A DNA stretch of 64,000 nucleotides from Macrostomum hystrix. Its lineage: Eukaryota > Animalia > Platyhelminthes. Position 1 is the first letter of the stretch, and the number at the start of each line of letters is the position of its first letter. The stretch spans positions 26,288,001 through 26,352,000 of the forward strand of contig CATNEN010000001.1 of assembly GCA_950097015.1 (NCBI GenBank), in the 5' to 3' direction. Below the pieces are notes generated by a model that saw nothing but the letters and a program-made list of their open reading frames with translations, had not been told where the DNA came from and did no database searches. The position numbers and the translations under genes are program-made. Shown piece by piece: positions 8,448 through 30,547 of the stretch.

Positions 8448-10031
8448 ATTGCATATTTTCAGCAGAGCAGCTCAACTACCGCCTCAGGCTGTGAGCTCGC
8501 GTCCCTCCCTCTGCCTCCATTCTCTGTGCTTGAGACGCACCGTGCGACCTTCCCCTGCCCCAGCAGTGCCAGTGGAAAACTGAGAGAAGGCTGGGCTGAG
8601 AGACAAAAGAGACAGACTGGCTGCTTATGATCTCAGAGCATTTCTATGAACTCAATTAGCCATAGGAAATGCCATCTGTATTGAGCAGTCTCTGAAATGA
8701 GTCTATTTCTCAAAGCAGGTATTCACTGCCAGGATGGCATTGTGCGGGGCTGCCCTCTCCCTCTACCCCACTTTGCCGTCTCTTACGATGCAGATTTCAT
8801 ACACGAGACACTACGAATCCTGAGCAGTTAAGGTGGTTCGCCAGGGACATTGGAATGGGGCTACTGTCATGCAGCGTGACCAGGTCATGAAAAGCCTGGC
8901 ATTCCTAGCACTTGCGGGCGGGCCGGGCCGGACCGGGCCGAGAACTCGCTGCGACAAACTCGAGAAACTGCGGGCTGCGGAGTGGCACCACCTGCCATCC
9001 CTGACACCTGCCATCCCTGACACCCTCTGAAGGGTAACGGGCAAAGCCTGCAGACTCGCAGTTTCAAGTCGACTCAAAGGCTGTCCAACTGAGCTGATGG
9101 CGCATTTCATTTCAGCTGCCTGGCAGCAAGCAAAACGCACTGCATGAAATCTGCTTTGAACCGAACATTTTCAGCAGCCTCTCAGACTCTGTCTTCTATT
9201 TCTCTGGAAGGACAACTGCCCACAAAACCCGGGATTATTGACACCTAAGCGAAAACGTAACAAAATTAAAAAAGGGCTTTGAACACAGGCTGGTGCAATC
9301 AAGGTAAACCTATAGAAGCACCGAAGCACCGAAGATCTAGAAGCTAGACCTAGAATTTCGGGCCTAGAACCTGCTGCGATAGTTTTGCATAGCATCATAT
9401 GGTATTTTGTATATTCGTATATAGAGCAGCAAGGGAATTATACTCGTGTGAGACTCTTCACAAAACCCTGACTTTTCAACTCAACGCCTACTTTAATTAC
9501 ATCGAGTAGACATCGTACAGCTCTGCTGCTGTGTACAAGTGCGAGCCACAAAGCACCTTGTTGAATAAATACTTGATAGGCAAATGGTTAACTCAGCTAC
9601 AGCACTGCACAAGCTTATGAAGGACGTGCATGCGTGCATCTCGTGCATGAACGACAAATACTACTGTGAGTAGTAGTATTTGATTTTGGAGTTTGAGTCA
9701 ATTTTCTATTTATATTTAGGTATAGAAAACTAAAAACACACAAGTGCTGAAGGTATTTTCCTGACTGGCTTCAATAAATGGCGACGTCAAACTCAGGTGA
9801 CCAAATATGGCCACAACGGCTTGTCTTGATGGTGTGCCACTGCATGTGCTAACCGACTAATTGAAGACAAAAACTTGTTCCAAAATTTCATCTTAGAAGC
9901 ATCATAGGGATCTTGGTACACTTTTATTAACTCAAATTTAGTCTCATTACAATGAAGCACTGATTTGTTCGTAACGAAACTTCTCAGTTCACACACTGAT
10001 CACGGCCTGGACCGTTGCAGCCTTCATCGCA

Positions 10032-11774
10032 TTAGCCGATTAGCTGTGGCACAGGCAGTTCACAATTCCCATTTACTTCAATCCTGCCCGACTCCGCACA
10101 GGTGGCATAGCAGCGGCCGTTCACTTTGAAGTTCCGACACGCCACGCACATGTCTGGGCCGGGTCCCCAGCATTCGTCCTGGCACTGAGCATCGCAGGTA
10201 GCGTTCCGGCAAATCTCGCTGCTGTCATCAAAGATCAGGTTTAGCATTGTAATATGAAATTCTCTAGTGACTTCCTGGATTTCTCGGATTCGATTGCTTG
10301 GATACCAGGCTCTGCAAAGACGACTAATATACTCAAGCACAAGGTTAGCAGTATATTGCAAGCTAGCTAGTCCGAGGTATCTCGTCTGGAGAAATAAAAT
10401 CTCAAAGGAATCCGTGACATGTTTGATATTACGTAGAAATCGGAGGTTATCTGTTAAGTGTTGAGATCTATGAATTACTAAATTGCCGTAAAAGTATTCT
10501 AAGTTCTCCAATGCTCTAAGGTTATTTAAGCTACTTAACTTATTAACATCCACAAGTAGAGAAAAATCGGCCCTCCAAATCGAACACTGCTCAGTCCTCA
10601 ATGAGTTTGCTAAATTGTCTGAAATCAAGAAGGAGACATTGCACGATTTGCAGGGCTTAGAGCTAATTTTTTCAATACACTTTGTGCAAACTCCTTCGAT
10701 AGGGACTTCCGCTGACGGACACTCGATTAAACAGCGCCTGCCGTCAGAGCTAACAAAAAAGGCCAGTGAGCACTTCTCTACGCAGATGTTGCCGATCTGT
10801 CGCCAAACAGTCACGCCAGTGCCATTTCCACTAGCGGTACTAGTATTCGACGGACAGGATTCTCTACAGACACCATTGAACAATACTCCTCTCCGACAGG
10901 CGAAGCACTCGTTGGGCCGGTTTGAGCAACCGCCAAGGCAGTCGTCGTGGCAGCAGTCTTCTTGGCCAGTGCTCGGGTTATGGAAGCATAGGTTCGTAGT
11001 GTTACACTTGCGCTTACGACACAGATGATTACTTTGGCAGCCATCAACACCGTCGGACCAGCAAGTTTGGTTATAAATTGGAGTTTGAGTACAGTTAGCG
11101 TGACAGGAAAGCAGACGATTGCAGGTACGCCTATCAATCACACCCGAGTTAGAGCTTTTCTTAAGACTTTGGCCTTCATCAGTAGTAACAGAAATCACTT
11201 CATCAAAATAGCGCTGGCCTGGTTCTTGAAGCAGGCTTGTCCAGTTGATGCTGTAGGACAGGTAGCAGTACAAGCTAGACTGCATTTGCGCACCATATAG
11301 AATAACATTTCTCCATGTGATAGCAGTCAACTTGGGCATTTCCAGCTTTCTCATGTTCGGCGACTTGAATATTCCAAACGTGTAGCCAGAAAAATTTTTA
11401 AAAGCGTAACCTCGGATGGTGCGCAAGTTGCGGAAGGTGACGCGCTCAAGGTTGACGTACTCGATCCATATTTTTCCGCTGATCTCCACAATGGAGTCAA
11501 GAAAGTCAGTTTGCATGCCTCGAATTTCATCGTCCAGCGGTTCGTATGTTAATTGGGTATAACCTATCTTGCTCAATGTCACGTCGCCGAAAACATACTG
11601 GCAGCCAGCTACTAAAGCCGTTAAGTCCGCCTGCAAGCGACTAACATTTCTGTGGGTCTCATAGCCGTAGCTGGTGATAGGTAAGGATTTGCAGATCCGG
11701 ATGCCAGAAGCAACATCGTCGTGTAACAGCGGAAGCAAAAGAAGCAACCGAAAAACAAGCTGCAGGAAATTCAT
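10032..11774 (-). CDS. Secreted EGFR/ErbB-ectodomain-only protein, copy A (signal peptide, L1, furin-like Cys-rich, L2, partial domain IV; no TM or kinase); intronless CDS
   Basis: 580-aa ORF with hydrophobic N-terminus. Motifs CQYVFGDVTL, FLDSIVEISG, NLRTIRG, LEMPKLTAI, INW, DCCHDDCLGGC, CFACR and CWGPGPDMCVACRNF are all EGFR-like. Ends at TAA with no hydrophobic segment. Confidence 0.9.
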   Translation of the reverse strand: MNFLQLVFRLLLLLPLLHDDVASGIRICKSLPITSYGYETHRNVSRLQADLTALVAGCQYVFGDVTLSKIGYTQLTYEPLDDEIRGMQTDFLDSIVEISGKIWIEYVNLERVTFRNLRTIRGYAFKNFSGYTFGIFKSPNMRKLEMPKLTAITWRNVILYGAQMQSSLYCYLSYSINWTSLLQEPGQRYFDEVISVTTDEGQSLKKSSNSGVIDRRTCNRLLSCHANCTQTPIYNQTCWSDGVDGCQSNHLCRKRKCNTTNLCFHNPSTGQEDCCHDDCLGGCSNRPNECFACRRGVLFNGVCRESCPSNTSTASGNGTGVTVWRQIGNICVEKCSLAFFVSSDGRRCLIECPSAEVPIEGVCTKCIEKISSKPCKSCNVSFLISDNLANSLRTEQCSIWRADFSLLVDVNKLSSLNNLRALENLEYFYGNLVIHRSQHLTDNLRFLRNIKHVTDSFEILFLQTRYLGLASLQYTANLVLEYISRLCRAWYPSNRIREIQEVTREFHITMLNLIFDDSSEICRNATCDAQCQDECWGPGPDMCVACRNFKVNGRCYATCAESGRIEVNGNCELPVPQLIG

Positions 11775-12477
11775 TTTCTTAAATCACCTCTGCAGTGCTT
11801 TCTTTCTATTTTGATTCCCAGCTCTGAAGTTTTTCACTTCTTTAAATACGAATGGAATGAAATGCGACTCATCGAAAATAAAATTCTTTCGCAGGAAATT
11901 TTGCAACAAAAAATAACACCACTTTCCAAATTTTTCCCGTTTCTCCGACTCTGCAGAAAAACTTACTCAAAGCATTTTTCTGTCGCTTGTTTTTCAAAAA
12001 TGAGGTATAAAAATCAATAAATTATCGCAAGACAAACAACTTTAGCTTTTTCTTTTTGGCTCTTAAATTCCAGCTTGGAGTTAATTGTGCTCCAACTCGG
12101 GCAATTATCAGTGAAAGAAGCGACGAAAGACTAATATTAAATGAATAATTTTTTGTTTTTTATATTAAGAAAATGTAAGCCTATGGTTCTATTTATACCT
12201 TCGATACAAAAAGTCAATCAATAATCAGTAGACAAGGCGCATTTGGCTGTTGTTGTTTCGGCTCTTGAATTGCAGGAGTTCATTTTGCGCCGGTGCGGGC
12301 AATTTGCAGCAAAAGAAGCGACGAACGAACCGAAAGACTAAGCAATTATTGAGCATTGAGTATTGAGCACTGACCTTCTTGACGACTCCAACGGTTTCTG
12401 CTCTGCCGCAGAACAAGCAGGCGACATCCCGACTAGCGACTCTCCGAGAAGTGACTCGTTCTACGTGAAAGTGACAC

Positions 12478-13985
12478 TTCACAGACCCTCTCTGACACAG
12501 TGGAGACACTTCACAGACCCACTCTGACACAGTGGAGACACTTCACAGACCCACTCTGACACAGTGGAGACACTTCACAGACCCACTCTGACACAGTGGA
12601 GACACTTCACAGACCCACTCTGACACAGTGGAGACACTTCATAGACCCACTCTGACACAGTGGAGACACTTCACTGACCCACTCTGACACATTGCAGACA
12701 CATCACTGACCCACTCTGACACAGTGGAGACACTTCACTGACCCACTCTGACACAGTGGAGACACTTCACTGACCCACTCTGACACAGTGGAGACACTTC
12801 ACTGACCCACTCTGACACAGTGGAGACACTTCACAGACCCACTCGGACACATTGCAGACACATCACTGACCCACTCTGACACAGTGGAGACACTTCACAG
12901 ACCCACTCTGACACAGTGGAGACACTTCACAGACCCACTCGGACACATTGCAGACACATCACTGACCCACTCTGACACATTGCAGACACATCACTGACCC
13001 ACTCTGACACAGTGGAGACACTTCACAGACCCACTCTGACACAGTGGAGACACTTCACAGACCCACTCGGACACATTGCAGACACATCACTGACCCACTC
13101 TGACACAGTGGAGACACTTCACAGACCCACTCTGACACAGTGGAGACACTTCACAGACCCACTCGGACACATTGCAGACACATCACTGACCCACTCTGAC
13201 ACATTGCAGACACATCACTGACCCACTCTGACACAGTGGAGACACTTCACAGACCCACTCTGACACAGTGGAGACACTTCACAGACCCACTCGGACACAT
13301 TGCAGACACATCACTGACCCACTCTGACACAGTGGAGACACTTCATAGACCCACTCTGACACAGTGGAGACACTTCACTGACCCACTCTGACACATTGCA
13401 GACACATCACTGACCCACTCTGACACAGTGGAGACACTTCACTGACCCACTCTGACACAGTGGAGACACTTCACTGACCCACTCTGACACAGTGGAGACA
13501 CTTCACTGACCCACTCTGACACAGTGGAGACACTTCACAGACCCACTCGGACACATTGCAGACACATCACTGACCCACTCTGACACAGTGGAGACACTTC
13601 ACAGACCCACTCTGACACAGTGGAGACACTTCACAGACCCACTCGGACACATTGCAGACACATCACTGACCCACTCTGACACATTGCAGACACATCACTG
13701 ACCCACTCTGACACAGTGGAGACACTTCACAGACCCACTCTGACACAGTGGAGACACTTCACAGACCCACTCGGACACATTGCAGACACATCACTGACCC
13801 ACTCTGACACAGTGGAGACACTTCACAGACCCACTCTGACACAGTGGAGACACTTCACAGACCCACTCGGACACATTGCAGACACATCACTGACCCACTC
13901 TGACACATTGCAGACACATCACTGACCCACTCTGACACAGTGGAGACACTTCACAGACCCACTCTGACACAGTGGAGACACTTCA
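12478..13985. repeat. Composite 30/31-bp minisatellite (cacagacccactctgacacagtggagacact and variant) with 704-bp higher-order duplication
   Basis: Periodicity read directly; identical ORFs at 13012-13221 and 13716-13925. Confidence 0.95.
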
Positions 13986-14055
13986 TAAATAACCAATTTG
14001 CTCTGTGAAGGAAAGACTAAGTCATAGATACTAAAATAATTCGACTGATTCGAAA

Positions 14056-17000
14056 TCGGCATTCGAGTAATCGCTCTTGTTGCTGATCAGGAGACAACGC
14101 AATGGGCTGATCTCTCCACACTGGTAAGTATTATCTGCAGTGTTAAGCAAATTACTTAATGACTTTTACTCGTTTGTTTTGACAGGTCTCGCCATCCATG
14201 CCCTTTTTTTCACCACCCTGTGAGTCAGAAGCCGGTTTATGTGATTGTTGATGTACCACATTGCCTGAAAAACCTACGCTATGCGCTTACGAAAAACGAT
14301 ATTGCCTTTGATAATGACAAGCTGGCAAAATGGCAGCACGTTGTGAACTTTTATGAAACCGACAAAAGTCGCCCACTTCGATTGGCAAGTCGACTGAATA
14401 ATGTTCACATCACCTTGCCGCTTGGTCAGAAGATGCGCGTTTCCATCGCAGCTCAAATACTTAGCCATTCGGTTGCAAGCGGAATAAAAACTCTGGTGCA
14501 CCATAAGGAAACGGAGCTCATCGCCCTGCAGACGGCAGAGTTTCTACAGCGCGAGAACGATATCTTCGATATGCTGAACTCTGCCCACATGCACGACAGA
14601 GGCTTCAAGCAAGCAGTCTGCCGCGAATCCTTAGCTGAGCAGACTATCGAACTGCGCAAAGCCGAGGCCTTTCTGCAGAGTTTGCGAATCCTTAGCTGAG
14701 CGGACTATCGAACTGCGCAAAGCCGAGGCCTTTCTGCAGAGTTTGCGAATCCTTAGCTGAGCGGACTATCGAACTGCGCAAAGCCGAGGCCTTTCTGCAG
14801 AGTTTGCGAATCCTTAGCTGAGCGGACTATCGAACTGCGCAAAGCCGAGGCCTTTCTGCAGAGTTTGCGAATCCTTAGCTGAGCGGACTATCGAACTGCG
14901 CAAAGCCGAGGCCTTTCTGCAGAGTTTGCGAATCCTTAGCTGAGCGGACTATCGAACTGCGCAAAGCCGAGGCCTTTCTGCAGAGTTTGCGAATCCTTAG
15001 CTGAGCGGACTATCGAACTGCGCAAAGCCGAGGCCTTTCTGCAGAGTTTGCGAATCCTTAGCTGAGCGGACTATCGAACTGCGCAAAGCCGAGGCCTTTC
15101 TGCAGAGTTTGCGAATCCTTAGCTGAGCGGACTATCGAACTGCGCAAAGCCGAGGCCTTTCTGCAGAGTTTGCGAATCCTTAGCTGAGCGGACTATCGAA
15201 CTGCGCAAAGCCGAGGCCTTTCTGCAGAGTTTGCGAATCCTTAGCTGAGCGGACTATCGAACTGCGCAAAGCCGAGGCCTTTCTGCAGAGTTTGCGAATC
15301 CTTAGCTGAGCGGACTATCGAACTGCGCAAAGCCGAGGCCTTTCTGCAGAGTTTGCGAATCCTTAGCTGAGCGGACTATCGAACTGCGCAAAGCCGAGGC
15401 CTTTCTGCAGAGTTTGCGAATCCTTAGCTGAGCGGACTATCGAACTGCGCAAAGCCGAGGCCTTTCTGCAGAGTTTGCGAATCCTTAGCTGAGCGGACTA
15501 TCGAACTGCGCAAAGCCGAGGCCTTTCTGCAGAGTTTGCGAATCCTTAGCTGAGCGGACTATCGAACTGCGCAAAGCCGAGGCCTTTCTGCAGAGTTTGC
15601 GAATCCTTAGCTGAGCGGACTATCGAACTGCGCAAAGCCGAGGCCTTTCTGCAGAGTTTGCGAATCCTTAGCTGAGCGGACTATCGAACTGCGCAAAGCC
15701 GAGGCCTTTCTGCAGAGTTTGCGAATCCTTAGCTGAGCGGACTATCGAACTGCGCAAAGCCGAGGCCTTTCTGCAGAGTTTGCGAATCCTTAGCTGAGCG
15801 GACTATCGAACTGCGCAAAGCCGAGGCCTTTCTGCAGAGTTTGCGAATCCTTAGCTGAGCGGACTATCGAACTGCGCAAAGCCGAGGCCTTTCTGCAGAG
15901 TTTGCGAATCCTTAGCTGAGCGGACTATCGAACTGCGCAAAGCCGAGGCCTTTCTGCAGAGTTTGCGAATCCTTAGCTGAGCGGACTATCGAACTGCGCA
16001 AAGCCGAGGCCTTTCTGCAGAGTTTGCGAATCCTTAGCTGAGCGGACTATCGAACTGCGCAAAGCCGAGGCCTTTCTGCAGAGTTTGCGAATCCTTAGCT
16101 GAGCAGACTATCGAACTGCGCAAAGCCGAGGCCTTTCTGCAGAGTTTGCGAATCCTTAGCTGAGCGGACTATCGAACTGCGCAAAGCCGAGGCCTTTCTG
16201 CAGAGTTTGCGAATCCTTAGCTGAGCGGACTATCGAACTGCGCAAAGCCGAGGCCTTTCTGCAGAGTTTGCGAATCCTTAGCTGAGCGGACTATCGAACT
16301 GCGCAAAGCCGAGGCCTTTCTGCAGAGTTTGCGAATCCTTAGCTGAGCGGACTATCGAACTGCGCAAAGCCGAGGCCTTTCTGCAGAGTTTGCGAATCCT
16401 TAGCTGAGCGGACTATCGAACTGCGCAAAGCCGAGGCCTTTCTGCAGAGTTTGCGAATCCTTAGCTGAGCGGACTATCGAACTGCGCAAAGCCGAGGCCT
16501 TTCTGCAGAGTTTGCGAATCCTTAGCTGAGCAGACTATCGAACTGCGCAAAGCCGAGGCCTTTCTGCAGAGTTTGCGAATCCTTAGCTGAGCGGACTATC
16601 GAACTGCGCAAAGCCGAGGCCTTTCTGCAGAGTTTGCGAATCCTTAGCTGAGCGGACTATCGAACTGCGCAAAGCCGAGGCCTTTCTGCAGAGTTTGCGA
16701 ATCCTTAGCTGAGCGGACTATCGAACTGCGCAAAGCCGAGGCCTTTCTGGAGAGTTTGCGGTTTATTCCTAAGAGTGGCAAGGCAGAAAGGTCAACAATG
16801 AAGTTTAAAGACGCCTGGGGCCTGTCAGCCGCTGCTATACGTGAGCTGTCGATTGCGCTGATCGATGAAGGTCTCGACTTTGTCTGCACTCGCAGGCTGA
16901 CCCAGGACCACGTGGAAGTGAGTTTTTAAATAATTTCAATATCTGAAAATGAGATCAGAGAGATACAATAATGTGTGATATGACTTTTTAAACTAATTAT

Positions 17001-17778
17001 GTTCCTTCGATAATGTTAACTGCGGGTTCACAAGTATTACAGGAAATCGCAATCCAATCCATTTCAGAATCTATTCAGCATCATTAGAGTCCGAAATGGC
17101 TTCAATGAGAAGCCTAAACTGGCTGCATTTGTCGGAGCGCTGAGATCAGAGGCTGCAAGCGGACTTGATCGACCGGATTCCGTAACAAGGAATTGTGAAG
17201 ACGACGAATGCTCTGCCGCAGTGACAATTAATCTCTCGCATTTAGCTGGAGCAGACATCAGCAGCAGTGGATCTTTAGGCGAGTCTACTACTAACTTTGC
17301 CGCGCTGAAAACATCACACCCAAATTATCCAGATCCGGTTCTTGCTGAGTCGACTGAGTACGTTGGAGGCTCCGTACTCAAGAATAGTCGCGTCTTGGAG
17401 TGCTCCGAGTGCAAAGAGGTGCTGACTGCGGCTTCAGGAGTGCACTTCAACAACAAGTCGCTCTGCCATGCGCTTAAAGGATTGACAAATCCGTCAGCCG
17501 CAGCCCTTCAAGTGTTTGCAAGAATGGGGGCATTATTTGTGGCGCAGATTGAGTCGTGCGCTTTGCATCGAAAAGTGGCTGCAGAGATTGTGAACAAGTT
17601 TGTTTTTGCTGAGATCTACCTACCAACATGCAGTGTGCATTATGCTGAGGTGCATAACAGTGTTTTCTCTGCGTTTGCTCGCTTGCGATTGCACCACTGG
17701 TGTCGCGATAAGATGCGGAGCCTGCGAGAAGCAGCTCTCAGGCGAAGTGCTGTTCGGAAATGCAAGAAATTTAACTAA
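14056..17778 (+). mobile_element. P-element/THAP9-type transposase, 5'-truncated and disrupted; exons about 14056-14123, 14186-16917 (interrupted by array) and 17068-17778
   Basis: VIALVADQ, DVPHCLKNLR (D-x-x-H), KMRVSIAAQILSHSVA, NDIFDMLNS and TRRLTQDHVE|NLFSIIRVRNGFNEKP (catalytic E region) are P-transposase signatures. GT/AG introns present. Apparent +1 frameshift in the T-run at 14204-14210. Confidence 0.9.
14623..16760. repeat. 61-bp tandem array (about 35 near-identical copies) made of transposase coding sequence
   Basis: Unit shifts by 1 nt per 60-nt line. The transposase frame (AEAFLESLRFIP) resumes after the last copy. Confidence 0.95.
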
Positions 17779-18658
17779 ATCTAACTAGTATAATTTGTTT
17801 CTTTTCTTTAATAAATCACGATGATTTGGACTGCGGTGGCAGCAACTGAGGCGGCTGTGGATTGGCCGCCAGAGGGCGAAGGCAGGGGCGTCGGCAGTGC
17901 CGGAGCATTCGTCTGCTGCTTCAGCAACGTTGGAGGAGTCAGGAAGTGACAAATTTCAATGCGCGATGCACACTACTCGAACGCTTGTTTGTTAGTAGTA
18001 TAAAACGCATTCGCGGTGCAGAAACGAGACCAGACTCACCGCTGCTCCAGTTCTAGTGAGCACAGCTGGCAGGCAGGATTTCACTCCAATGCTGGAGATC
18101 GAATTCTCCGAATGGCGACACTTGCTCCAGCTGATGAAGCTAGAGAGTCTGTGCATAACATGGTTACGAATTTCATTTCTGAAGGACTTTCATTGATTCG
18201 TTTTACAATTTCGGGAGCCCAATTAAGTCGACAATTCTTACCATTTAGAGATCTTCAGTGCACTCAGGCTGCAATAAATCTGAAGTAACCCCGGGGGGAT
18301 TGATCAGTAAAACATTTTAATATCTTTTAATTCGCGTTTAAAATATTTCATGCAGAAGATCTGGGAAATGATAAAAGGGTCACGTTTCAGTCTAATCAGG
18401 TCGGAACGATTTCAAATAAGATTTCGAAATCGTTTCTGAAATTTCAGGGTTTGAAGAAGCAGTATAAATCTTCAGAGTCGTAGAACGAAAAAATGCAAGC
18501 TAGAAACAGTAAATAATGCACATGAGTAAATACAAACAAGAATTCTCTTAAAAACTACTGTGAAATTGATTGCAATCGTATATCACAGAAACTAATCCCA
18601 CAGAATCAACTTTTTTTCTTTGAACTTCGGTGTCGCTGTAAGTAGGCCTAACTGCAAT

Positions 18659-21600
18659 TCAGGAATTGGCGTTTTTGCCATGGGCGCCCAGCGTCATACG
18701 ACAGGCTCTGCCCTGCACCCTATATAGCGCCTCCAGGTTTTTCTGGATGCCCATGGCACTGGCCCAGATGAGGCCAGCGTATGCGACGGACGGTCTAATG
18801 ATCGCCGTGTAAATCCACCAAAGGTTCTTGGGGGTTAGCCCCCAAGTGGTGCCCACGGCACGCCTGACTTGCGCCAGTATTGGGCCCTCTTGGCCTTTGT
18901 GGTGATGTGCGGGGTCCAGTTAAGCCTATGGTCTAGCAGGAGACCAAGGCACCGGACCTGCTTTTCATGGCAATATTCTTGCCATAGAGAGTCAGAGGCT
19001 TAATGGTCCAGAGCAGTCTGCTGGTAAACATAACCGCAACGGTCTTGGACTCAGAGAGTCGGAGCCCGCATTGGTCCGCCCAGCGCACCGCCCTGTTGAT
19101 AAAGCCCTGGATGAGGTCCCTGGTGGTTTCCGCCGAGGGGCCCGCGCAGATGGCGGTCACATCGTCGGCATATCCCACCTTCAGGACTGGGTCAGGACGA
19201 GTGCTTTTCAGCAGCTCATCCATGACGAGATTCTGCAGCAGTGGGGTGAGGACGCCGCCTTGGGGCCCTCCTCTTAGGACAGGTGCCGAGAGCAGCCTGC
19301 CTTCGAGGTGGGCCACCACGTGGCGATGCCGGATCATGTACATGACCCAGCGAACGAGGTGGGGGTGAGTGGCCCTGGAAACCAGGGCCTCCTCAAAAGC
19401 TTCGAAAACAACGTTATCGAAGGCCCCCTCAATGTCTAGGAAGACAGCCAGGGCAAAACCGCTGCCCAGCACTGCCTTCTCGAGAGTCTCCACGATGCAG
19501 TGGAGGGCGCTCTCCGTGGACCGGCCCGCCCGAAAGGCGTGCTGGTTTGGGGAGAGCGGGGCCCGCCCTAGCTCTACAGTAAGAAGGCGCCAGTCTTTCC
19601 ATGAGCTTGAGGCAGGTGGAAGTCTAGCTTATCGGGCGATAAGACTTGACCGAGCGATAGTCGCCTTTGGCGGGCTTCGGGATGAAGACGACCCGGGCTT
19701 CGTGCCACAGCGCTGGTACATAGCCCAGCACGATGCAGGCCCGTAGAAGTCTGCAGAAGAGATGGAGGAAGCGGCCATTTTTGACCGCTTCATGCAAAAA
19801 GGCCGGATATATACCATCTGGCCCAGGTGCTTTAAAAGGGTTGAATGACTTAGCCGCGCGAACGATGCGGTCATTCGTGACGAGTGACTGAGCCAGGCCC
19901 TGACCTCCACGCGAGTGGTCGTCTGGGCCAAAGTGCGCCGGTACACTCGGGAAGAAATGCCCTAGCATAAGCTCGAGCGTTTCCTCCGGGCGCTCCGTGA
20001 TCCAGCCGTCTGGCTTTTTGATCGATGAGAGCTTGGAGAAGCGGTCGTTGGTGAGCGCCTTTACCACGCGGGCCGTGGGCCGCGAGCCCTCAAGCCCTTC
20101 GCAGTATTGTCGCCACTTGTCCGCTTTTGCCCTTCTGACCCGGCCCTTAAACTCATGGATGGCGCGAGTATAGGCCTCTTTGTCATCAGGGTCGTGCGAG
20201 GTTTTCAGCTTCCTCTGGAGAGCCTTAGCTCGGCGTCTCAGGACTCCTAGCTCGGGGTTCCACCAGGGGGGCCGATTTTTTGCCTTTGTAGGCTTTGAGC
20301 GGGCAAGTCATTTCGTAGGCCTCTGTGATGGCGCCGCCCAGCAGGGCAGCCACTCCATCTAGGTCCTGCGTGGTTGCCATGGCCATGGAGGGGTCGGAAT
20401 CCCGAAGGCCCTCATGCAGCTTTTGGCTGAACGCGGGCCAGTCGGTGTTTCTGACATTACGCCTCCAAATAGGCTTTTGCTTCTTATCGGGGGTACCGAT
20501 GTTGAAGCGAATGAAGCGGTGGTCCGAGAGCGAGCTTTCGGTCTCCCACACCTCCCGCCCCAGCACCCTTGGGAGGATGCCGGGTGAGGCCAGGGTGACG
20601 TCAAGCACCTCAGCCCACCGCCCATTGTCGAAAGTGGGCGTGTTGCCCACATTGCAGAAGTTAAGAGGCGTGCCGCTAACGAAGGCCAGGAGCTCTTCGC
20701 CGCGGTCATTGATTTTTGAGCTGCCCCAGTGGGTGTGATGCGAGTTTGCATCTCCCGCGAGGAGCAGCTCAAAGTTTCGTGCCCTGGCGAAATCGGGTCT
20801 CATCCACGCATTTAAGGCTTTTGCAGCATAGATCAGTGATCTAGGGCGGATGGAGTCTGCCATGCAGAAGCAGTCATAGCCAGCAGGAATGTTGCTTGGC
20901 TTGTTTTTTATAACTGGGCTCCTGCACAAGTACAAGGCATGGCATCATGCGCTCTGTCGTGCGCATCAGATTGACTGATGCTGCCACGCAGTGATGGGTG
21001 TTAACTTGCAGACATGATATTCCGGGGATCATCATGCAGGCAGAGGTCTACTTGGAGGGGGACTCAGCCAGAAGGCGGTCCTCCTCCTCCGGGTCGATGT
21101 CGGTAGCCATGGGCTCCTCCGTGCCCCGGCCCCGAGCCAGAGGCGGGAACTCGACGGGGTCAGCCTCCCAGTCCCCACCCCCGGCCCAGAGCCCAGGCCC
21201 AGAGTCGCCCTCAACCGGTGCCGACACCGCACCCTGGGCCGGCGCTCGAAGGGCCCTGCTCGATGGAGCTGGGCACCTTAGAGGCCTCCCACGTAGCCCT
21301 TGGTTGCGGCGCCTGCCCCGGTGGGCCACCGCGCATCTCAGCGCGCAGCTGGGCCATCTTGGCGGTTCGCACCACCTCGGAGGCCCGCTGAAGAAGGCCC
21401 CGGCGCTTTGTGATGCGCGCGGGGCGACGCTCAGAGCTGCCAGCGATGGCACGCTCTGGCCTTTTTTGGCGAGACGACTGGGCCCTGCCCCCAGTCCCAG
21501 CCTCGGGGTCCGAGGACCCTTCAGTGGCCTGTACGGTGGTGGGCCCGGTCTGACCTAGAGTTTTATCTGCCTCGAAGGCGAAGATTTTGGTCTTCCACAG

Positions 21601-21681
21601 ACCAATGCAGATATTGGCGCCATCTGGGTAGCGGCGTGTCCATTGCTCGGACAGGCCCAGAATGGTGGTGAAGCCGGTACC
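18659..21681 (-). mobile_element. Degenerate non-LTR retrotransposon, Loa/R1-like (ORF1 remnant, APE, RT), frameshifted and 3'-truncated
   Basis: APE motifs GDANSHHTHWGS, NTPTF, LDVTL, SDHRFI. RT motifs KAPGPDGIYP, YRPIS, FLDIEGAFD, PQGGVLTPLL, GYADD. Post-RT TWGLTPKNLWWIYTAIIRP. Split across several frames. Confidence 0.88.
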
Positions 21682-24590
21682 GTTGTTGTTGTTGTTGGCG
21701 TACGGATCCCTCGCTAGGCATATGGGGGGCGCGCCAGCGCGCCCGTCGCCTCGACGAAGATCCGCACCCAATTCGGGTCCTCCCACAGGAGGGACATTGA
21801 GCCAGTAGAAGGGAGGAGGTTGCGGCGTTGATCGGCCCACCTGGGGCAGTCGAGCAGGAAGTGCCGCGTGTCCTCCTCGGGAGCGTTGCAGTGAGGGCAA
21901 GACGCAAGGCGCGCGGTTCGCCCTGAGTTGGAACAGCGCCACCTCCGCCGCACGAGGCCAGGCACGGCCGACCTGCAGCCGTTTGCCGCCGCTGAGTCGA
22001 TGTGGGTGGTCCAGAGGGACTAGGTTTTCGTATGCTCGGTCGTCTTCCGCTTGACCTTGCCGCCTGAGAGCAGCTCTGAGCGCCGCGACCGGTGTTGGCA
22101 TGTTATCTTGCGGGAGCGTGCAGCCCTCGCGGGCCAGAATGTCGGCTTCCTCGTTGAGCGCAAGCCCGGCGTGGCCCGGCACCCAGATTACAGTGGGCCG
22201 GTGGTCCGTGGTGAGCTGCTCCAGCAGAATGGACGCCTATGCAGTTGCGTGGTCTGTCTGGCACTTACACTGTGACTGGAGCCGGTCGAAGAGCGCTTGG
22301 GAGTCGAACAGCAGCCAGACGGCCATGCAGGGGCGTCCGTGGAGAATGGCAAGGGCCGCCTCGAGACCAGCTGCGGCCGCCGCGGCCTCCGCGGTCGTTG
22401 AGCAGGTTAGGTGCCCCGCTGGGACACTGCCTCTGATGTCCCGGCTCCCTGGGGCCCGCTGCCGAATCAGGTAGCCGCCTCCTCCATTACGGATGCCTTC
22501 CTCTGCCGCGCCGTCTTTCCAGATCTGCAGGTCAGGCGGGTCCTCCTGCCTCAGGCGGTCTAGCAGCTCCAGGGTTTTTGTCCTCCGAACAAGTGGTGCC
22601 TCGTCGCGGCTGGTTTCGGCACGGACGAAGCGGGTCTGGAGACTACGGGACCAGGGGTGACGGAAACAGGTGGGGGGAATGCGGCCTTCCACCCGGTCGC
22701 GGCCTCCTTCCACAGTGCTCAGTATCTCGATGGCCGACTCGCGCCAAGAGCTTCGGGTGCCCGCGGTCCTCGCCTTGAGTCTGGTGGGGGTGGCGGACGG
22801 GCTGGCCAGATCGCGGAGTAGATGCCCTTCAGGGAACTGCTGGCAGCGCAGGGGCAGCTCCGCGGCCCTCTGCCGGCAGATGGTGTTGAACGGCTGGAGG
22901 CCGGCGTCACAGATTAGGGCGCGGGCCCGGGCTCCGGCGCCTACCCCTGTGATGATCCTAGCAGCGGCATACTTGGCGGATTCGAGGCGTTCGCGGTGGG
23001 TGGGGGCCAGGAACGGCCACCAAAGTTCAGCCCCGTAAAGCCCTGCCGGACGAACGTAACTGCAGTAGAGGCGGTGTAGAGTCTCAAAGCTCGCACCCCA
23101 GGATCGCGCGGCAACGCAGCGGAGAGCCGCGAGCCTCCTGTGCAGCGCCGCGAGAGACCTCTTTGCTTGTTCAGCGAAATTGAGCTGTGAGTCGATCGTT
23201 ACTCCCAGGACCTTGATCTCGCGCATGCAGGAGACGGTGTGTCCGCCGGCTTGCAGAGTGCCGCCGAACTTGCCGTTGAGCTCAGCCGGGTGGGTACTGA
23301 TAAGGATGACTTCAGTCTTCGCCGGCGCCAGCTTGAATTGGTGTTCCTCGCACCAGCCACTCACCGCGTCGATCGCGGCCTGCATCTGTACTGTAGCCGT
23401 CAACGGGGAGGCGTCTGATGTCTTCACAGTGAGGTCGTCCGCGTATTGGATGGGCCAACACTTGGGTGCCGCCTGCTGAATGGCCCCGGGCAGGGTCCGA
23501 GTGGCGATGTTGAAGAGCAGAGGCGAGAGCGGACTGCCTTGCGGCACGCCTTCTTTTAGGACTCGGAGCCGACTGAATTGTGTTCCCCAGCGGACGCAGG
23601 CACGCCGGTCAGCCAGAAACGATCGAAGCCACCGCATCCAGCCGGCCGGTGCTCTGGCCCGAGCGAGCTCACGCAGGACCCCTAGGCGCCAAGTGCGATC
23701 GAACGCCGCTTGAAAATCGAACGCGGCAAGCAAGGTCCTTGTCATTGGCCGTGTCTGAAGAGAGTCGAATGCTGGTTGAGCCAGCTGGGCCACGGCGTCG
23801 AGGGTGCTGCGACCCGCTCGGAAGCCTGACTGCTCATCGGGGATCAGGCCGTTCTCTTCGGCCCAGGCATTCATGCGATTGTTGACCATGGCCTCGAGGG
23901 TCTTGCCTACACAGCTCAGCAGAGAGACTGGGCGGTAGGAGGCTGGGTCGTGGGTCGGCTTGTCTTTCTTAGCGATTGGACAAATGATGGCCGTGCGCCA
24001 CGCTGAGGGGACTCTCCCCTCGCGCCAGCTCCTGTTCAACAGAGTCAAAAGCGCCCGCCGGCCTTCGTCTTGTAGTTTCTGCAGAAAAGCTGGGAGGATG
24101 CCATCCTTTCCAGGGGCGTAGCCAGCGGAGCTCCGGAGGACGTCCGCCAGTTCCGCCATGTGAAATGGAGCCTCGCGTGGGTCTTCGCTGCATGTTCCGA
24201 GCGCTTTACGGACCTCGAATCTGGCTCCTTGCTGGTCTGCTTTCGGGACTCTGAGCCGGCTGACTGCCGCGTAGGTTTTAATCGCCAGGTCCGCTTTTTC
24301 CCTGTCCGTGGTTGCTGTCTTTTCGTCCTGCCGTAGCGGCGTGTCCGGGAGCGGCTGCCGGGACCTACCGTCCAGCGCCCGGATTGTCCGCCACACCTTG
24401 GATTCAGGTGCGCGGGTGGATAAGCCGGAGACGAATTGCCGCCAGGCTGCGGCCTTGGCCTGACTATAGACACGATCCGCATTCTCGTGAGCTGTGCGGT
24501 AAGCCGCCGCTGCGTCCTCATCTCCCTGGGCAGCCCTGGAGTCTGCTAGCGTCTCACGCGTGGCCCGTTGGTCAACGGAGGCCCCCTTCC
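21682..24590 (-). mobile_element. Ingi/I-group LINE, 3' portion: RT, RNase H, CCHC knuckle, (AAC)5 tail
   Basis: APGKDGI, YRPVSLLS, QSGFR, DFQAAFD, GVPQGSPLSP, QYADD. RNase H motifs KDGA, AEAAA, FDSQA, PGHAGLALNEEAD. Knuckle CPHC...HFLLDC. (GTT)5 at 21682-21696 on the + strand. Confidence 0.92.
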
Positions 24591-25673
24591 CGCGGGGACC
24601 GATGTCGCAAAGTGCCTCCACCCACCGGATGCCGTCTCGGCGCCCGCACCCAGACCTTCGGGTTTTCGGGTGGGCAGCAGACCAACCCCGACGAGTCTCG
24701 CTGCCGTCTTCTACTGTCGGGGGACATTGAGCAAAATCCTTGACCTTCTCAAGCCGACATCCGCATCCTGCAATGGAACCTCAACGGTCTGCGGATGCGG
24801 CGCCCGGCTCTCGAACATCTACTAGAGGAGCTTCAAGTGGACGTGGCCGTCCTTCAGGAAACAAATCTGACAGCGCAAGATCACACCCCTAAGATGGCAG
24901 GCTTCTCTGCACACCGGCGGGACCGTGCCGTTCACAGGGGGGCAGCAGGCCATCACGGCGGGCTCCTCACCTTAGTCAGGCACGGGCTTGCCCACGAAGT
25001 GGCCCAGGGGGCATTGGGAGTCCCAGAGACCGCAGCGCTGGAGCACCTCATGATCCGGCTCCTCGGCAACAAGACACGCCCTCTCTACATCAGTAACGTC
25101 TACAGACCGCCGGTCCGCACTTCGGCAAGAGACGAGCGGGACGGCAGGCTGCATACCGACATGTGGCCAACAGAAAGCAACTGGCTGCTGCTCGGAGATC
25201 TGAATGCGCACGGTAGTTGGGATGAGCTAAGAGACCCAGACGCGATAGGCGAGGAGCTCGAAGACTGGATGACCAACCACAGCTGGACGACCTTGAACGA
25301 CGGAAGTCCGACGCGTGTGAGCCCAGGAGGAGCCGAGTCGACCCCGGACGTTTCGCTGTGTCACGCAGAGATGTCCAGCCGTGTCAGCTGGAACGTAAAA
25401 GACACCATGGGGTCAGATCACCTACCAATTCTACTGGCAGTGGCCTTCACGCAACCGAAAGGCAGCCGCAAACCTGCCCAGTACAATCTTAAACGTGCGG
25501 ACTTGCCGCTATTCGCCGGAAAGGCCGATGAGCAACTCCGTCACTGGTCGGCCGATGCTTTCGGATCGATAGAGGCCGCCAACAGCGAGTTCTGCAGACG
25601 CCTTCTCTCCGCTGCCAGCTGCATCCCACGAGGGAGTGTCAAGAAACCCAAGAGCTGGTGGAATGACAGCTGT
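24591..25673 (+). mobile_element. Inverted 5' portion of the same Ingi-like LINE: 5' leader, 2A-like peptide, APE endonuclease
   Basis: LLLSGDIEQNP*P then ILQWNLNGL, LQET, VYRPP, GDLNAH, NDGSPT, SDHLPI, ending at KSWWNDSC. This is the point where the minus-strand RT ORF (ASVDQRATRE) would continue. Confidence 0.85.
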
Positions 25674-26309
25674 CGAGCATTCTGCTGTCGTGCAGTACGT
25701 TGGCCCTCTGTTTTAGGATATTTTCTCTATCCGACAGTACTGCTTAACCAAAGTCTGCAGGTCAAACTGACCCGTCACAATCGTTACTTTTCGCTGACGT
25801 TGCCTAATAACTGACAGAAGGGAGCTACAAACGTTCGCATTCTCAGTCGGAACACGGCATCAAAGCCTTGATTCCATTAAATGGTACTTCAATGGAACAC
25901 GGTGCCTGTTCAGCCCAGCACATCGTCTCTCTGCGGCTGGTATTGACTATTTTATTTCATACATCGTCTACATGAGAGAATGTCATTCAATACACTTTTC
26001 GTCAAGTCCTTGCATCCAGCAGCGGTTAGCCAAAACAATGCAATCATACTCAGACTCAAAGATCAGTTGCAGGGGACTCTAGACTGCGAATGGGCAGCTG
26101 TATGATAGTCTCAGGCCCTTGGCGAGCCGGCAAATCCACATCCTGCCAGCAGATGCTGTACAATAGCCGCAGCGTGGCTGAGGCTCAGGCTGCATGATGC
26201 TCTCTCCCTTGTCTTTCGTTCAGATCAAGCATCCAAACCTACTTTGCTGGACTCGATCTTAGCTCGTCTATAGCATAACAGAAGTAGTAGTGATACCACA
26301 AGCTACCGC

Positions 26310-26577
26310 AGCACGCTAGACTCCCAGTCTCACACCAACCACCATACTCCACCCATCATACACACTGACCTGAGCACGCTAGACTCCCAGTCTCACACCA
26401 ACCACCATACTCCACCTATCATACACACTGACCTGAGCACGCTAGGCCGACATACCACACCCGATCCCATCCCAACATACCGACCCCTCATACCCCACTC
26501 CTTCACACCGACCCCTCATACCCCTCCTCACCCCTACACACCGACCCCTCATACCCCACCGCTTCACACCGACCCTA
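26310..26577. repeat. Two copies of a ~62-bp direct repeat followed by a degenerate C-rich ~30-bp repeat
   Basis: gcacgctagactcccagtctcacaccaacc occurs twice; accgacccctcatacccc units follow. Confidence 0.75.
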
Positions 26578-27624
26578 GTCGCAAGGGAATTCTCAATGCA
26601 CTATTAGCTGGAAACACGGCTTTCTGTTGCGCGTACTCACGGAAAACTTTCACTGGGAGGTGGGTAAGCTGCATAGGGAAGCTGGATCCTTCATGGAGTA
26701 CTTACATTCCATTCGAAATATCCATGAGCAACTCCATTCCAGGTATGCTTACACACTCATGAATACATAGCAATAAATCGATCCCAACTTGGATGTCTCC
26801 AGAACGGACATTTATGCAGCTTTCCAATTGAACTCTGGTAACATCCATGGTGGAAACTCTCTTATCAGTTCTCTTGATCTGATTGGGCTTGATCTGTTGT
26901 GTCCCGAGACGGGCCAGCCGGCTTCGCCTCTCGCTCAGGACGAGCAGGGAGGTTCAGCACTTCCGTCCTCCTATGTGTCGGCCTACTGTCGCACTAGACG
27001 CACAGGCAGTAAGCCGGCAACCAAGGTCGCAACGAATGCACACGCTCTGGTGACAAAGTCCTAGTGACTGAACCCGAAAAGACAGAGGCAGAACGACACT
27101 TACGTAGGCTAGCAGTCTTGTTTGCGCTCGGGAGAGCTGGCTGAGTTGATGTATTTTTTCTGGTAGGCGGTGGTTGGGGTGCTCAACAAAACAAAACAGT
27201 CACGTCAGAGGGGGACGAGCGCGCGCACGCCAATAAATAATACCTGCTCACCCAGGGTGAGCAGGGTAATACCCGATCACGGCTAAGCTGCAGGAGAGAG
27301 AGAGAAAGTAAGAGACAGAAAGAGAGAGAACCAGCCGCAGCCTCGCCAATCACGCAGGGTCAATAAGACAACTGGGCGAGCCGCGAACCAATGAGAGGGC
27401 AGAACGGGAGATGACAATAACAGGGGGTACGCAAACGTCTTAGCTCAACCAATCAGACGCCAGGGGTGAGAGAAATTGATAGGCAGGCAGGCGCAGAGCA
27501 AGAAAGGGGCAGGGGGGTAAGCGACTCAAAGTGCAACGCGATAGTGAAAGTACATAGAAAACTATTAAATCACAACAGATCAGTTTCGTCCAAACAGAGT
27601 TTCTCAAAAAGCAGTTTCTCGCTG

Positions 27625-27895
27625 ATGCATGAGGTGCTGACGCATGAGGTGCTGACGCATGAGGTGCTGACTCATGAGGTGCTGACACACGAGGTGCTGA
27701 CACATGAGGCGCTGACACATGAGATGCTGACGCATTAGGTGCTGACGCATGAGGTGCTGACACATGAGATGCTGACACATGAGGTGCTGACGCATGAGGT
27801 GCTGACTCATGAGGTGCTGACGCATGAGATGCTGACACATGAGGTGCTGACTCATGAGGTGCTGACGCATGAGGTGCTGACGCATGAGACACATG
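27625..27895. repeat. 15-bp minisatellite (catgaggtgctgacg)
   Basis: Read directly. Confidence 0.95.
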
Positions 27896-28410
27896 ATGTC
27901 TGAATGTTATCGACTTTTTCGATTGTATCGATTGTGTCATGGCATTTTTGTGCAAAAATTTGTGCATAATTTTGTCAGGTACATCTCAAAGAAGTGTTAA
28001 AATACTGCTAAGCGTGAAGGATGGCGAAAGCTGCAGCTGAACAATTGTTTTTCAAATCAAAACAATGTGCTTTGAACACAGGCTGATGTAGTCAAGCGAG
28101 ATCTATAGAAGAACCGAAGCTAGAAGCTAGAAGCTAGATCTAGAAGCTAGACCTAGAACGGGCATTTGCTGCGATACTTTTACATAGGTGTGGAATGTTA
28201 TAGTACTCGTATTTCGTATATTCGGAATAAGCGAAGTAATTATTTTTACAGACAATCAAACCTGCAGCACCTCTATCCTATCATTGAATGTATGATGAAT
28301 GAATTGAATTAATGTATGAACTAGAAACACACAAGTGCTGAAGGTATTTTCCTGACTGGCTTCAGTAAAAGGCGATGTCAAACTCAGGGGACCAAATATG
28401 GCCACAACGG

Positions 28411-28587
28411 TGTAAGGTGTGCGGTGATTCATTCTTGCATCGCGTCGTAAGTTAGCTCCGTAAATTGTGCAATGCAATGTACACTCTCTGGTGTACATCG
28501 CCAAATATAAAGTCGCTCACTTGAGGCTTTAGTCACCTCGTGTATTCTCGGTTCTCGCGCAGGTCTCGCCTTCTGACTTAGTTTACA
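28411..28587. mobile_element. 177-bp solo LTR (TGTAA...TTACA) with 4-bp TSD ACGG, Gypsy/Ty3-like
   Basis: Flanked by acgg on both sides. The paralogous empty site ccacaacggcttgtc is at about 9811. Confidence 0.75.
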
Positions 28588-28804
28588 ACGGCTTGCCTTG
28601 ATGGTGGGCCACTGCATGTGCTAACCGACTAATTGAAGACAAAAAACTTGTTCCAAAATTTCATCTTAGAATTATCATAGGGATCTTGGTACACTTTTAT
28701 TAACTCAAATTTAGTCTCATTACAATGAAGCACTGATTTGTTCTAAACGAAACTTCTCAGTTCACACACTGATCACGCCCTGGACCGTTGCAGCCTTCAT
28801 CGCA

Positions 28805-30547
28805 TTAGCCGATTAGCTGTGGCACAGGCAGTTCACAATTCCCATTTACTTCAATCCTGCCCGACTCCGCACAGGTGGCATAGCAGCGGCCGTTCACTTT
28901 GAAGGTCCGACACGCCACGCACATGTCTGGGCCGGGTCCCCAGCATTCGTCCTGGCACTGAGCATCGCAGGTAGCGTTCCGGCAAATCTCGCTGCTGTCA
29001 TCAAAGCTCAGGTTTTTTATTGTAATTTGAAATTCTTTAGTGACTTCCTGGATTTCTTGGATTCGATTGCTTGGATACCAGGCTCTGCAAAGATCTCTAA
29101 TATACTTAAGCTCAAGGTTAGGAGTATATTCCAAGCTGGCTAGTCCGAGGTATCTCGTCTTGAGAAATTCAATCTCAAAGGAAGAAGTGACATGTTTGAT
29201 GTTACGTAGGAATCGGAGATTTTCTGTCAAGTGTTCAGATCTCTGAATTCTTAAATTGCCGTAAAAGTACTCTAAATTCTCCAATGCTGTAAGGTTGTCT
29301 AAGCTACTTAAAATATCAGCAAACACGTATAGAGAAGAATCGGCCCTCCAAATCGAACACTGCTCAGTCCTCAATGAGTATGCTAAATTGTCTGACATCA
29401 TTAAGGAGACATTGCACGATTTGCAGGGCTTAGAGCTAATTTTGTCAATACACTTTGTGCAAACTCCTTTGATGAGGACTTCTTCTGACGGACACTCGAA
29501 TAAACAGCGCCTGCCGTCAGAGCTAACAAAAAAGGGCAGTGAGCACTTCTCTACGCAGATGTTGCCGATCTGTCGCCAAACAGTCACGCCAGTGCCATTT
29601 CCACTAGCGGTACTAGTATTCGACGGACAGGATTCTCTACAGACACCATTGAACAATACTCCTCTCCGACAGGCGAAGCACTCGTTGGGCCGGTTTGAGC
29701 AACCGCCAAGGCAGTCGTCGTCGCAGCAGTCTTCTTGGCCAGTGCTCGGGTTATGGAAGCATAGGTTCGTATAGTTACACTTGCGCTTACGACACAGATG
29801 ATTACTTTGGCAGCCATCGACACCGTCGGACCAGCAAGTTTGGTTATAAGTTGGAGTTTGAGTACAATTGGCGTGACAGGAAATCTGACGACTGCAGTTA
29901 TGCCTATCAATCACACTCGAGTTAGAGCTTTTCTTAACACTTTGGCCCTCTTCAGTAATAACAGAAATCACTTCATCAAAATAGCGCTGGTGTGGTTCTT
30001 GAAACAGGCTTCTCCAGTTGATACTGTAGGACAGGTAGCAGTACAAGCTAGACTTAATTTCTAGCCCAAGAGTATGAACACGTCGCTTTGTGATAGCTGT
30101 CAACTTGGGCAATTCCAGCTTGCTCATGTTCGGCGACATCCATATTCCAAACGTGTAGCCAGAAAATTTTTCAATAGCGTAACCTCGGATGGTGCGCAAG
30201 TTGCGGAAAATGACGCGCTCAAGGTTGACGAACCGGATCACAATTTTTCCGCTGATCTCCACAATGGAGTCAAGAAAGTCAGTTTGTATGTCACGAATTT
30301 CATCGTCCAGCAGTTCGTTCGTTATTTGGTCACTGCCAATATTGTCCAATGTCACGTCACCGAAAACATACTGGCAGCCAGCTACTAAAGCCGTTAAGTC
30401 CGCCTGCAAGCGACTAACATTTCTGTGGGTCTCATAGCCCTTGCCGGTTAAATATAAGGATTTGCAGATCCGGATGCCAGAAGCAACATTTTCGTGTAAC
30501 AACGGAAGCAAAAGAAGCAACCGAATAACAAGCTGCAGGAAATTCAT
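28805..30547 (-). CDS. Secreted EGFR/ErbB-ectodomain-only protein, copy B
   Basis: 580-aa ORF colinear with copy A without gaps; 491 of 580 residues identical by hand alignment. Confidence 0.9.
   Translation of the reverse strand: MNFLQLVIRLLLLLPLLHENVASGIRICKSLYLTGKGYETHRNVSRLQADLTALVAGCQYVFGDVTLDNIGSDQITNELLDDEIRDIQTDFLDSIVEISGKIVIRFVNLERVIFRNLRTIRGYAIEKFSGYTFGIWMSPNMSKLELPKLTAITKRRVHTLGLEIKSSLYCYLSYSINWRSLFQEPHQRYFDEVISVITEEGQSVKKSSNSSVIDRHNCSRQISCHANCTQTPTYNQTCWSDGVDGCQSNHLCRKRKCNYTNLCFHNPSTGQEDCCDDDCLGGCSNRPNECFACRRGVLFNGVCRESCPSNTSTASGNGTGVTVWRQIGNICVEKCSLPFFVSSDGRRCLFECPSEEVLIKGVCTKCIDKISSKPCKSCNVSLMMSDNLAYSLRTEQCSIWRADSSLYVFADILSSLDNLTALENLEYFYGNLRIQRSEHLTENLRFLRNIKHVTSSFEIEFLKTRYLGLASLEYTPNLELKYIRDLCRAWYPSNRIQEIQEVTKEFQITIKNLSFDDSSEICRNATCDAQCQDECWGPGPDMCVACRTFKVNGRCYATCAESGRIEVNGNCELPVPQLIG

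Follow-up and report, generated by a model that had tools for sequence, protein, structure and literature searches.

Proteins that hold a framework constant while varying the surface that meets a partner are familiar from variable lymphocyte receptors (VLRs) and plant leucine-rich repeat (LRR) receptors, in which a conserved solenoid core bears variable outward strand residues and the genes are multi-copy and subject to conversion. The EGFR family has tether-less counterparts, the soluble ErbB isoforms and the engineered sEGFR501, in which domains I-III are followed by only the first part of domain IV; the isoforms come from a single receptor gene by splicing or cleavage and do not represent diversifying genes of their own. 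In the presence of ligand, sEGFR501 is able to form dimers (PMC11400634). Here we describe two intronless genes of EGFR descent, copies A and B, in a 64,000-nucleotide (nt) stretch of the flatworm Macrostomum hystrix (assembly GCA_950097015.1, contig CATNEN010000001.1, positions 26,288,001 to 26,352,000 of the forward strand), called the window below. The predicted products are ectodomains without a transmembrane segment or kinase, and the differences between them are concentrated on the faces with which EGFR contacts its ligand. Our preferred reading, to which we give a probability of about 0.5, is that the copies are transcribed, kinase-less EGFR duplicates acting as secreted, two-faced clamps that sequester changing proteins of foreign or partner origin.

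The nearest described counterparts are decoy receptors of insects and nematodes. Insect SDR and DR2, like the present copies, are separate genes born of receptor duplication, with a signal peptide, the order L-furin-L and no kinase, SDR also lacking a transmembrane segment; unlike the copies, they derive from insulin receptors (InRs), contain FnIII domains and are single, long-conserved genes (PMC7253209). The available part of that article mentions no variable faces in either. The IRLD family of Caenorhabditis elegans, which includes hpa-1 and hpa-2, shares with the copies an extracellular, kinase-less L-domain build and a proposed decoy role, numbers 68 members and has some of them in hyper-divergent regions, but its homology to InR and EGFR is weak and it is restricted to Caenorhabditis (bioRxiv 2021.06.07.447366), whereas the copies arose recently from a parent that can be traced and retain EGFR domains I-III complete. 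No named nematode irld protein was among the copies' matches, most of the 106 representatives being unnamed. The copies do have the gene layout of SDR (a separate gene with a predicted signal peptide and neither transmembrane segment nor kinase), but their best matches are EGFRs and the Pfam annotation of the open reading frames (ORFs) contains no FnIII domain, which speaks against orthology with SDR or DR2. With EGFR/ErbB kinases they share L1, the cysteine-rich region, L2 and part of domain IV, without the transmembrane segment, the kinase or the canonical dimerisation arm. The pair appears to belong to neither SDR/DR2 nor IRLD and is not a functional EGFR; kinase-less decoys as such are already known. 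The likeness to VLRs and plant LRR receptors is one of analogy only, fold and origin being different and neither somatic diversification nor an immune role being indicated for the copies. Among the top-ranked matches of a search of the open literature (subscription journals lay outside its scope), none reported a diversifying EGFR-ectodomain family or these genes.

Variation on the ligand-contact faces of two EGFR ectodomain genes

Both ORFs lie on the minus strand, copy A at 10032-11774 and copy B, laid out identically at an offset of 18,773, at 28805-30547; the plus-strand frames are closed there. Each encodes 580 amino acids (aa), and the two align without gaps at 89 residue differences: 3 in aa 1-27, 45 in aa 28-222, 3 in aa 223-337, 6 in aa 338-379, 31 in aa 380-514 and 1 in aa 515-580. 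This recount reproduces the lengths, the total and the regional spread given in the first-pass annotation of this DNA, and adds the strand. In copy A, a likely signal peptide (aa 1-24; 11703-11774), judged by its N-terminal hydrophobic stretch alone, which forms a single hydropathy peak, is followed by L1 and a linker (aa 25-222; 11109-11702), the cysteine-rich domain II (aa 223-377; 10644-11108; 9 of 155 residues differ from copy B), L2 (aa 378-520; 10215-10643) and the start of domain IV with a short non-homologous tail (aa 521-580; 10035-10214). Pfam recognises Recep_L_domain (1.8e-15) and Furin-like (2.9e-14), while GF_recep_IV scores 29.1 and 28.7 bits against a cut-off of 29.5 over 38 of 132 model positions, so that domain IV is partial; L2, for which Pfam makes no call, is based on alignment with EGFR and on an AlphaFold model. 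No transmembrane segment was found by hydropathy, the top hydrophobic 19-mer beyond aa 30 reaching at most 1.21 against 3.06 for that of the full-length receptor P0034 introduced below. Pfam, alignment, model and hydropathy therefore agree with the architecture first assigned to these frames (L1, cysteine-rich region, L2, partial domain IV, no transmembrane segment or kinase).

The differences were placed on the fold in two ways. Human EGF contacts (PMC8838133) were transferred through the PDB EGFR sequence and P0064 with MAFFT, and 8 of the 13 mappable positions differ between the copies (p 0.003 against a background of 22%). Given as the human residue followed by the change from copy A to copy B, they are Y45 (K69N), L69 (Y106F), L98 (F136W), V350 (D409F), L382 (V433R), Q384 (H435Q), F412 (D455S) and I438 (V479E). 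By strand register, outward positions (+3, +5 and +6) differ at 19 of 27, compared with 57 of 314 positions elsewhere in the L domains (p 3e-8), or at 17 of 27 compared with 59 of 314 under a stricter register taken from the EGFR alignment alone (p 2e-6), and at core strand offsets only 1-2 of 18 differ. The variable face of copy A comprises K69, W103/E105/Y106, F136/K137 and aa 154-165 in L1, and L407/D409-K412, V433/H435, D455/L460 and V479/E481 in L2. The odds ratio of face to rest is 10.2 between the copies and 8.6 between copy A and P0034, from which 24 of 27 face positions differ; all 13 control pairs of the EGFR and InR families that include no window gene gave ratios of 0.68-2.74, none significant. 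Both the EGF-contact list and the control pairs were fixed independently of the observed differences. Contact mapping, register and controls thus concur with the earlier suggestion that the variation sits on the ligand-binding faces. Between P0034 and P0140, the two full-length copies in M. lignano, 9 of 1090 residues differ, without a face pattern.

The parent of the pair can be traced. Against 1.84 billion representatives, the top match of copy A is Macrostomum lignano Mlig012838 (P0034, PAA79361.1; 48%, E 4.5e-167), followed by Mlig030557 at 36%. A quick tree of the full 60-row alignment places the copies with P0034 (SH-aLRT 95) within a Macrostomum clade (100) and the InR-type rows elsewhere. 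P0034 is thus like the copies in tree position (sister), in 48% ectodomain identity and in Cys layout, and differs as a full receptor with a full domain IV, transmembrane segment and kinase. Past the stop of the copies the frame reads CDEGCNGPGRDQCVN and then a stop, and the shifted frame just before it reads CLCHS; together these match the parent's CQECHSECEGGCSSPSASECERC, Cys spacing included. This decayed relic of domain IV lies in the 3' untranslated region (UTR), at 9984-10031 in copy A, where a tblastn alignment of P0034 reaches 9993 and the remainder is a frame reading, and at 28757-28804 in copy B, both on the minus strand. Tree and relic show descent from an EGFR gene, and because the relic persists behind the stop while the copies group with a full-length receptor, the truncation inside domain IV is derived and common to both. 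The window's minus strand yielded no remnant of a transmembrane segment or kinase. A kinase-like match at 5677-6534 was rejected as the missing kinase, being on the opposite strand and 23% identical; the protein kinase gene at 5668-6612 (+) has two exons and looks Ser/Thr-like by eye. Neither the copies nor the neighbouring calumenin gene had an exact sequence in the protein collection. A search for proteins of nearly the same length gave two vertebrate matches and no ectodomain-only relative, a weak hint that M. lignano is without the family. P0034 and P0035 of M. lignano make up a clade on a long branch (1.38 changes per column), with a short domain IV and non-canonical arm loops, a lineage that was unusual even before the truncation.

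An AlphaFold model of the ORF built from the 60-row alignment reached a pLDDT of 85.9 and a pTM of 0.82 (a single-sequence version, at pLDDT 34, was left unused). The Foldseek matches listed are EGFR/ErbB ectodomains throughout, and the best PDB sequence match is LET-23. TM-scores are 0.60-0.63 to the Drosophila EGFR and HER2 ectodomains and 0.33-0.41 to human EGFR-type structures with a root-mean-square deviation of 17-20 Å, which we take to be tethered forms. In EGFR, a loop of domain II is known from structures as the dimerisation arm, and the part of domain IV that is absent here tethers that arm. The corresponding loop of the copies (C307-C331; 10782-10856, minus strand, in copy A) has 23 residues between the cysteines, compared with 26 in five of six comparison EGFRs and 28 in P0034; it is without a YNP/FN-type motif and, at the sequence level, carries sequons at N310 and N317, so the canonical arm appears to be missing.

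Gene conversion, constraint and selection

The copies lie within duplicated units, 9813-12479 for A and 28585-31218 for B, that are 90.5% identical and extend from about 700 nt upstream of the ORF to 220 nt downstream, with smaller matches reaching out to 9263. Since the upstream DNA is common to both, the pair did not arise by retrocopying. The DNA upstream of each copy contains a tandem duplication, about 150-200 nt long and diverged (11990-12345; 30760-31110), that predates the split of A and B, and a TATAAA at about 12190 upstream of copy A is changed in copy B.

Divergence within the units is uneven. Both L1 and L2 have a synonymous rate (dS) of 0.11, domain II one of 0.05 and domain IV one of 0; divergence is 3.2% in the 3' flank compared with 9.7% in the 5' flank. 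Codons 244-423, a probable gene-conversion tract (10506-11045 in copy A, minus strand; permutation p 0.002), contain no silent-only difference in 158 codons, yet 20 amino acid differences, and codons 471-580 contain none in 94, yet 13, both tracts having been picked after the fact. Because homogenisation extends to silent sites and to the 3' flank, the near-constant scaffold, which the first-pass annotation took as a signature of selection, is largely the product of gene conversion or concerted evolution. Conversion, which had also been raised there as a rival to be checked, explains the identity of domain II; the face differences persist in the homogenised tracts, as expected if selection protects the faces.

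Several statistics show that the coding frames are under constraint. No stop, indel or Cys change separates copies A and B. In 5000 neutral simulations with region-matched changes, the probability of no stop was 0.0016 and that of no lost Cys was 0.013, and there are no indels in 1743 coding nt compared with 10 in 663 nt of 5' flank (p 1e-5). We therefore reject a pseudogene reading, since stops, indels and Cys changes have been purged.

The ratio of nonsynonymous to synonymous rates (dN/dS, or omega) is 1.1-1.3 over the whole gene and 1.08 in a one-ratio model. In a wider face set, the proportion of nonsynonymous differences (pN) is 0.33 against a synonymous proportion (pS) of 0.14 (p 0.005-0.01) and a 5' flank divergence of 0.097. 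Face dN/dS is 2.9, or 4.1 when set against the dS of the L domains as a whole, and 0.88 in the remaining L domains; an omega that exceeds 1 on the face while the core is conserved is the pattern of a diversifying family, here from two sequences only. Codons with at least two changes number 29, compared with 14.3 +/- 3.0 in simulation, and adjacent changes are skewed to codon positions 1-2 (21 of 41 pairs, p 0.014).

Transcripts, further members and surroundings

Contigs from 8 of 12 listed public sequencing runs were compared with the window. All four runs of one set skip the GT..AG intron of a neighbouring ankyrin gene, and these runs are therefore RNA; the evidence for RNA consists of this spliced intron (4 of 4 runs) and of poly(A) tails (X1, X4), and does not cover runs X5, X9 and X11. 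Untemplated T-runs occur at 9886 (X1) and 28659 (X4, three contigs), where the genome has no A-run, placing the poly(A) site of both copies 146 nt beyond the stop and 37 nt beyond an AATAAA (9923-9928 in copy A; signal and site span 9886-9928 and, in copy B, 28659-28701, minus strand). In each run, one dominant contig spans the stop into the UTR; that of X2 over 28681-29093 has four other letters, none at the stop. Since both T-tails and stop-crossing contigs are present, the transcripts end at the locus and are not spliced onward, which disposes of two outcomes that would have undone the original proposal, namely a lack of transcripts or splicing to transmembrane and kinase exons.

The cysteine-rich and C-terminal parts are covered mostly by single contigs, whereas the L domains are covered by several, up to about 19% different (the piece tables hold the longest pieces only). 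X1 and X5 contain pieces that match copy A exactly across the variable region of L2, X5 also contains the L2 strand of copy B, and pieces exact to copy B occur in X6 and X10. Loose contig ends of 30 nt, translated by hand, give further strands: SILHVSDAAL (X9) and DLVVYVDWLR (X11, offset by one codon) at aa 404-413, RIGFSEFTNK (X2, X6) at aa 69-78 and TKKNVYLLGP (X1, X5) at aa 153-162. These variants retain the core Leu and Val while the outward residues vary (407 L/Y/H/V, 409 D/F/S/Y, 69 K/N/R). Runs of one organism label hold at least three sequence types, and of the coding variants in the best-supported 40 rows of each table, 11 of 39 and 11 of 37 are absent from both window copies. The expectation of a family larger than two is thus supported by the window pair and by further variant types in the runs, which may include alleles.

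Two other transcript types touch the family. A contig in X5 and X11 at 10102 matches the start of domain IV and then reads KHAGRYQL, like QEAGRYNL of the M. lignano receptor; it is likely, from this resemblance, to represent the full-length parent in the same organisms. X1 and X4 also contain a transcribed member with a net deletion of 280 nt in domain II (10700-11004 of copy A, 303 skipped and 23 inserted; 29473-29768 of copy B, 294 skipped and 14 inserted). It runs out of frame after about aa 257 and may represent a defective copy or else encode a short product with L1 only.

The surrounding region seems, from its sequence, prone to local duplication. Ankyrin-repeat genes lie at 832-1340, 2563-3102 and 32211-32734; two of them are 91% identical in DNA, and they flank the EGFR-like pair. 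At 32090 (+), upstream of the ankyrin gene, contigs of X2 and X4 carry a short leader that ends ...TTATTGCAT(G) and is attached at an AG acceptor. This TTATTGCAT leader resembles flatworm spliced-leader trans-splicing, and a literature search on the motif found nothing. Between the copies, 20225-25814 contains the remains of non-LTR (long terminal repeat) retrotransposons, with endonuclease and reverse transcriptase on both strands. Beyond copy B are an intronless calumenin/reticulocalbin gene (34676-35638), 90% identical to a protein clustered with M. lignano Mlig024316, pieces of a RhoGAP gene with introns filled by minisatellites (45120-52025) and a TALE (KN) homeobox exon (60256-60753); tandem repeats account for 33 rows across the window.

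Possible role of the copies

If the preferred reading is right, the copies would be secreted through their N-terminal signal, which hydropathy predicts. With most of domain IV gone there would be no tether, and L1 and L2 may face each other as in extended EGFR, so that the product would be a monomeric, open clamp gripping a protein between its two L domains. With its arm shortened and bearing sequons, the product would be less prone to form EGFR-type dimers, suggesting a ligand trap rather than a receptor poison, and gene conversion may keep the scaffold alike as selection keeps the faces apart. The selecting partner would more probably lie outside the worm's conserved EGF set, among the proteins of microbes or parasites, the products of prey or the secretions of a mate; we favour such a target because M. 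lignano has only two EGF-type ligands in a survey table of full-length ligands, which concerns another species and may be incomplete (PMC4914847). Between defence and mating, the present data favour neither. The supplements of an M. lignano prostate screen (PMC5977470; two files, with two of five 'receptor' rows available) contain no erbB, epidermal, insulin or furin entry, and, concerning another species, have no bearing on a link to seminal fluid.

A number of points weigh against this account. The extended conformation is a prediction of the structure model. Diversifying selection, as claimed in the first-pass annotation, is upheld on the faces by dN/dS of 2.9-4.1 and not over the whole L domains, where values of 1.2-1.5 are not significantly above 1 (p 0.08-0.36). 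A two-sequence M1a/M2a likelihood-ratio statistic of 31 is weak, being driven by multiple hits and inflatable by conversion tracts or multinucleotide mutation. Conversion also makes local dS an unsafe baseline, the analysis has two full sequences only, and the wide face set was chosen in part with the differences already in view. Five of the 13 contacts (L14, 16-18 and D355) are unchanged, in a stretch where the MAFFT mapping is uncertain, and F357 is aligned to a gap. The contig variants may be alleles or derive from other species labels. The face has also diverged relative to the full-length M. lignano EGFR, and the contig type of X5 and X11 continues receptor-like after aa 558, so that co-variation with a membrane-bound parent is possible.

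The copies could instead be sinks for the worm's own EGF- or neuregulin-type ligands, with one ligand or one tuned affinity per paralog, as in Drosophila SDR or hpa-1/hpa-2. True EGFR descent with L1, the cysteine-rich region and L2 retained fits this well, as do the repeated origin of kinase-less decoys from insect InRs (PMC7253209) and the fact that hpa-1 and hpa-2 modify EGF signalling (bioRxiv 2021.06.07.447366); but two ligands leave little to be partitioned, contact changes such as V433R, D409F, V479E and F136W are radical, and the described insect decoys are long-conserved (about 300 million years for DR2; PMC7253209), and we consider it rather unlikely. A related idea, that the copies are dominant-negative or partner subunits that pair with the full-length parent while receptor and decoys diversify together, would account for near-identical domain II, the parent-like contig in X5 and X11 and the distance of the faces from P0034 at 24 of 27 positions. 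Conversion, however, already accounts for domain II, and an arm loop that falls 3-5 residues short of that in every comparison EGFR, without the motif and with two sequons, speaks against pairing; the chance of this arrangement seems slim.

Neither selection nor a ligand would be needed if the faces had lost their job on truncation and drifted, patchy gene conversion leaving clustered differences that mimic selection. An overall dN/dS near 1, evident conversion and the transcribed copy with the frameshifting deletion in X1 and X4 all suit such relaxed constraint, yet face pN exceeds both face pS and flank divergence, 33 amino acid differences are kept in two (post hoc) tracts with no silent-only change in 252 codons, changes are skewed to codon positions 1-2, and stops, indels and Cys changes have been purged, which makes it quite unlikely. 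That A and B are uncollapsed alleles of one hypervariable locus, an assembly artefact with balancing selection behind the divergence, draws on the possibility that runs pool individuals; it is very improbable given that homology spans only about 3 kb within 18.8 kb of otherwise different sequence, that the 5' flank is 9.7% divergent with 10 indels, and that A-exact, B-type and third types occur within single runs.

Extending the secreted-clamp reading, we tentatively suggest, while thinking it somewhat doubtful, that Macrostomum holds a germline repertoire of secreted, antibody-like EGFR clamps with a conversion-kept scaffold and two opposed variable faces, serving the recognition of non-self or of mates. 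No variable immune or mate-recognition receptors described in Macrostomum were found in the open literature, and if the repertoire is real it would be, as far as that literature showed, the first recognition repertoire on the EGFR fold. Animal EGFR surveys that require a kinase domain (PMC4914847) would miss such genes by design. The ligand faces of EGFR are normally conserved like the rest of the L domains, as in the 13 control pairs, and the EGFR clamp can, on this reading, be re-targeted naturally. A young, multi-copy, kinase-less offshoot with diversifying faces points to an arms race in a tractable model genus.

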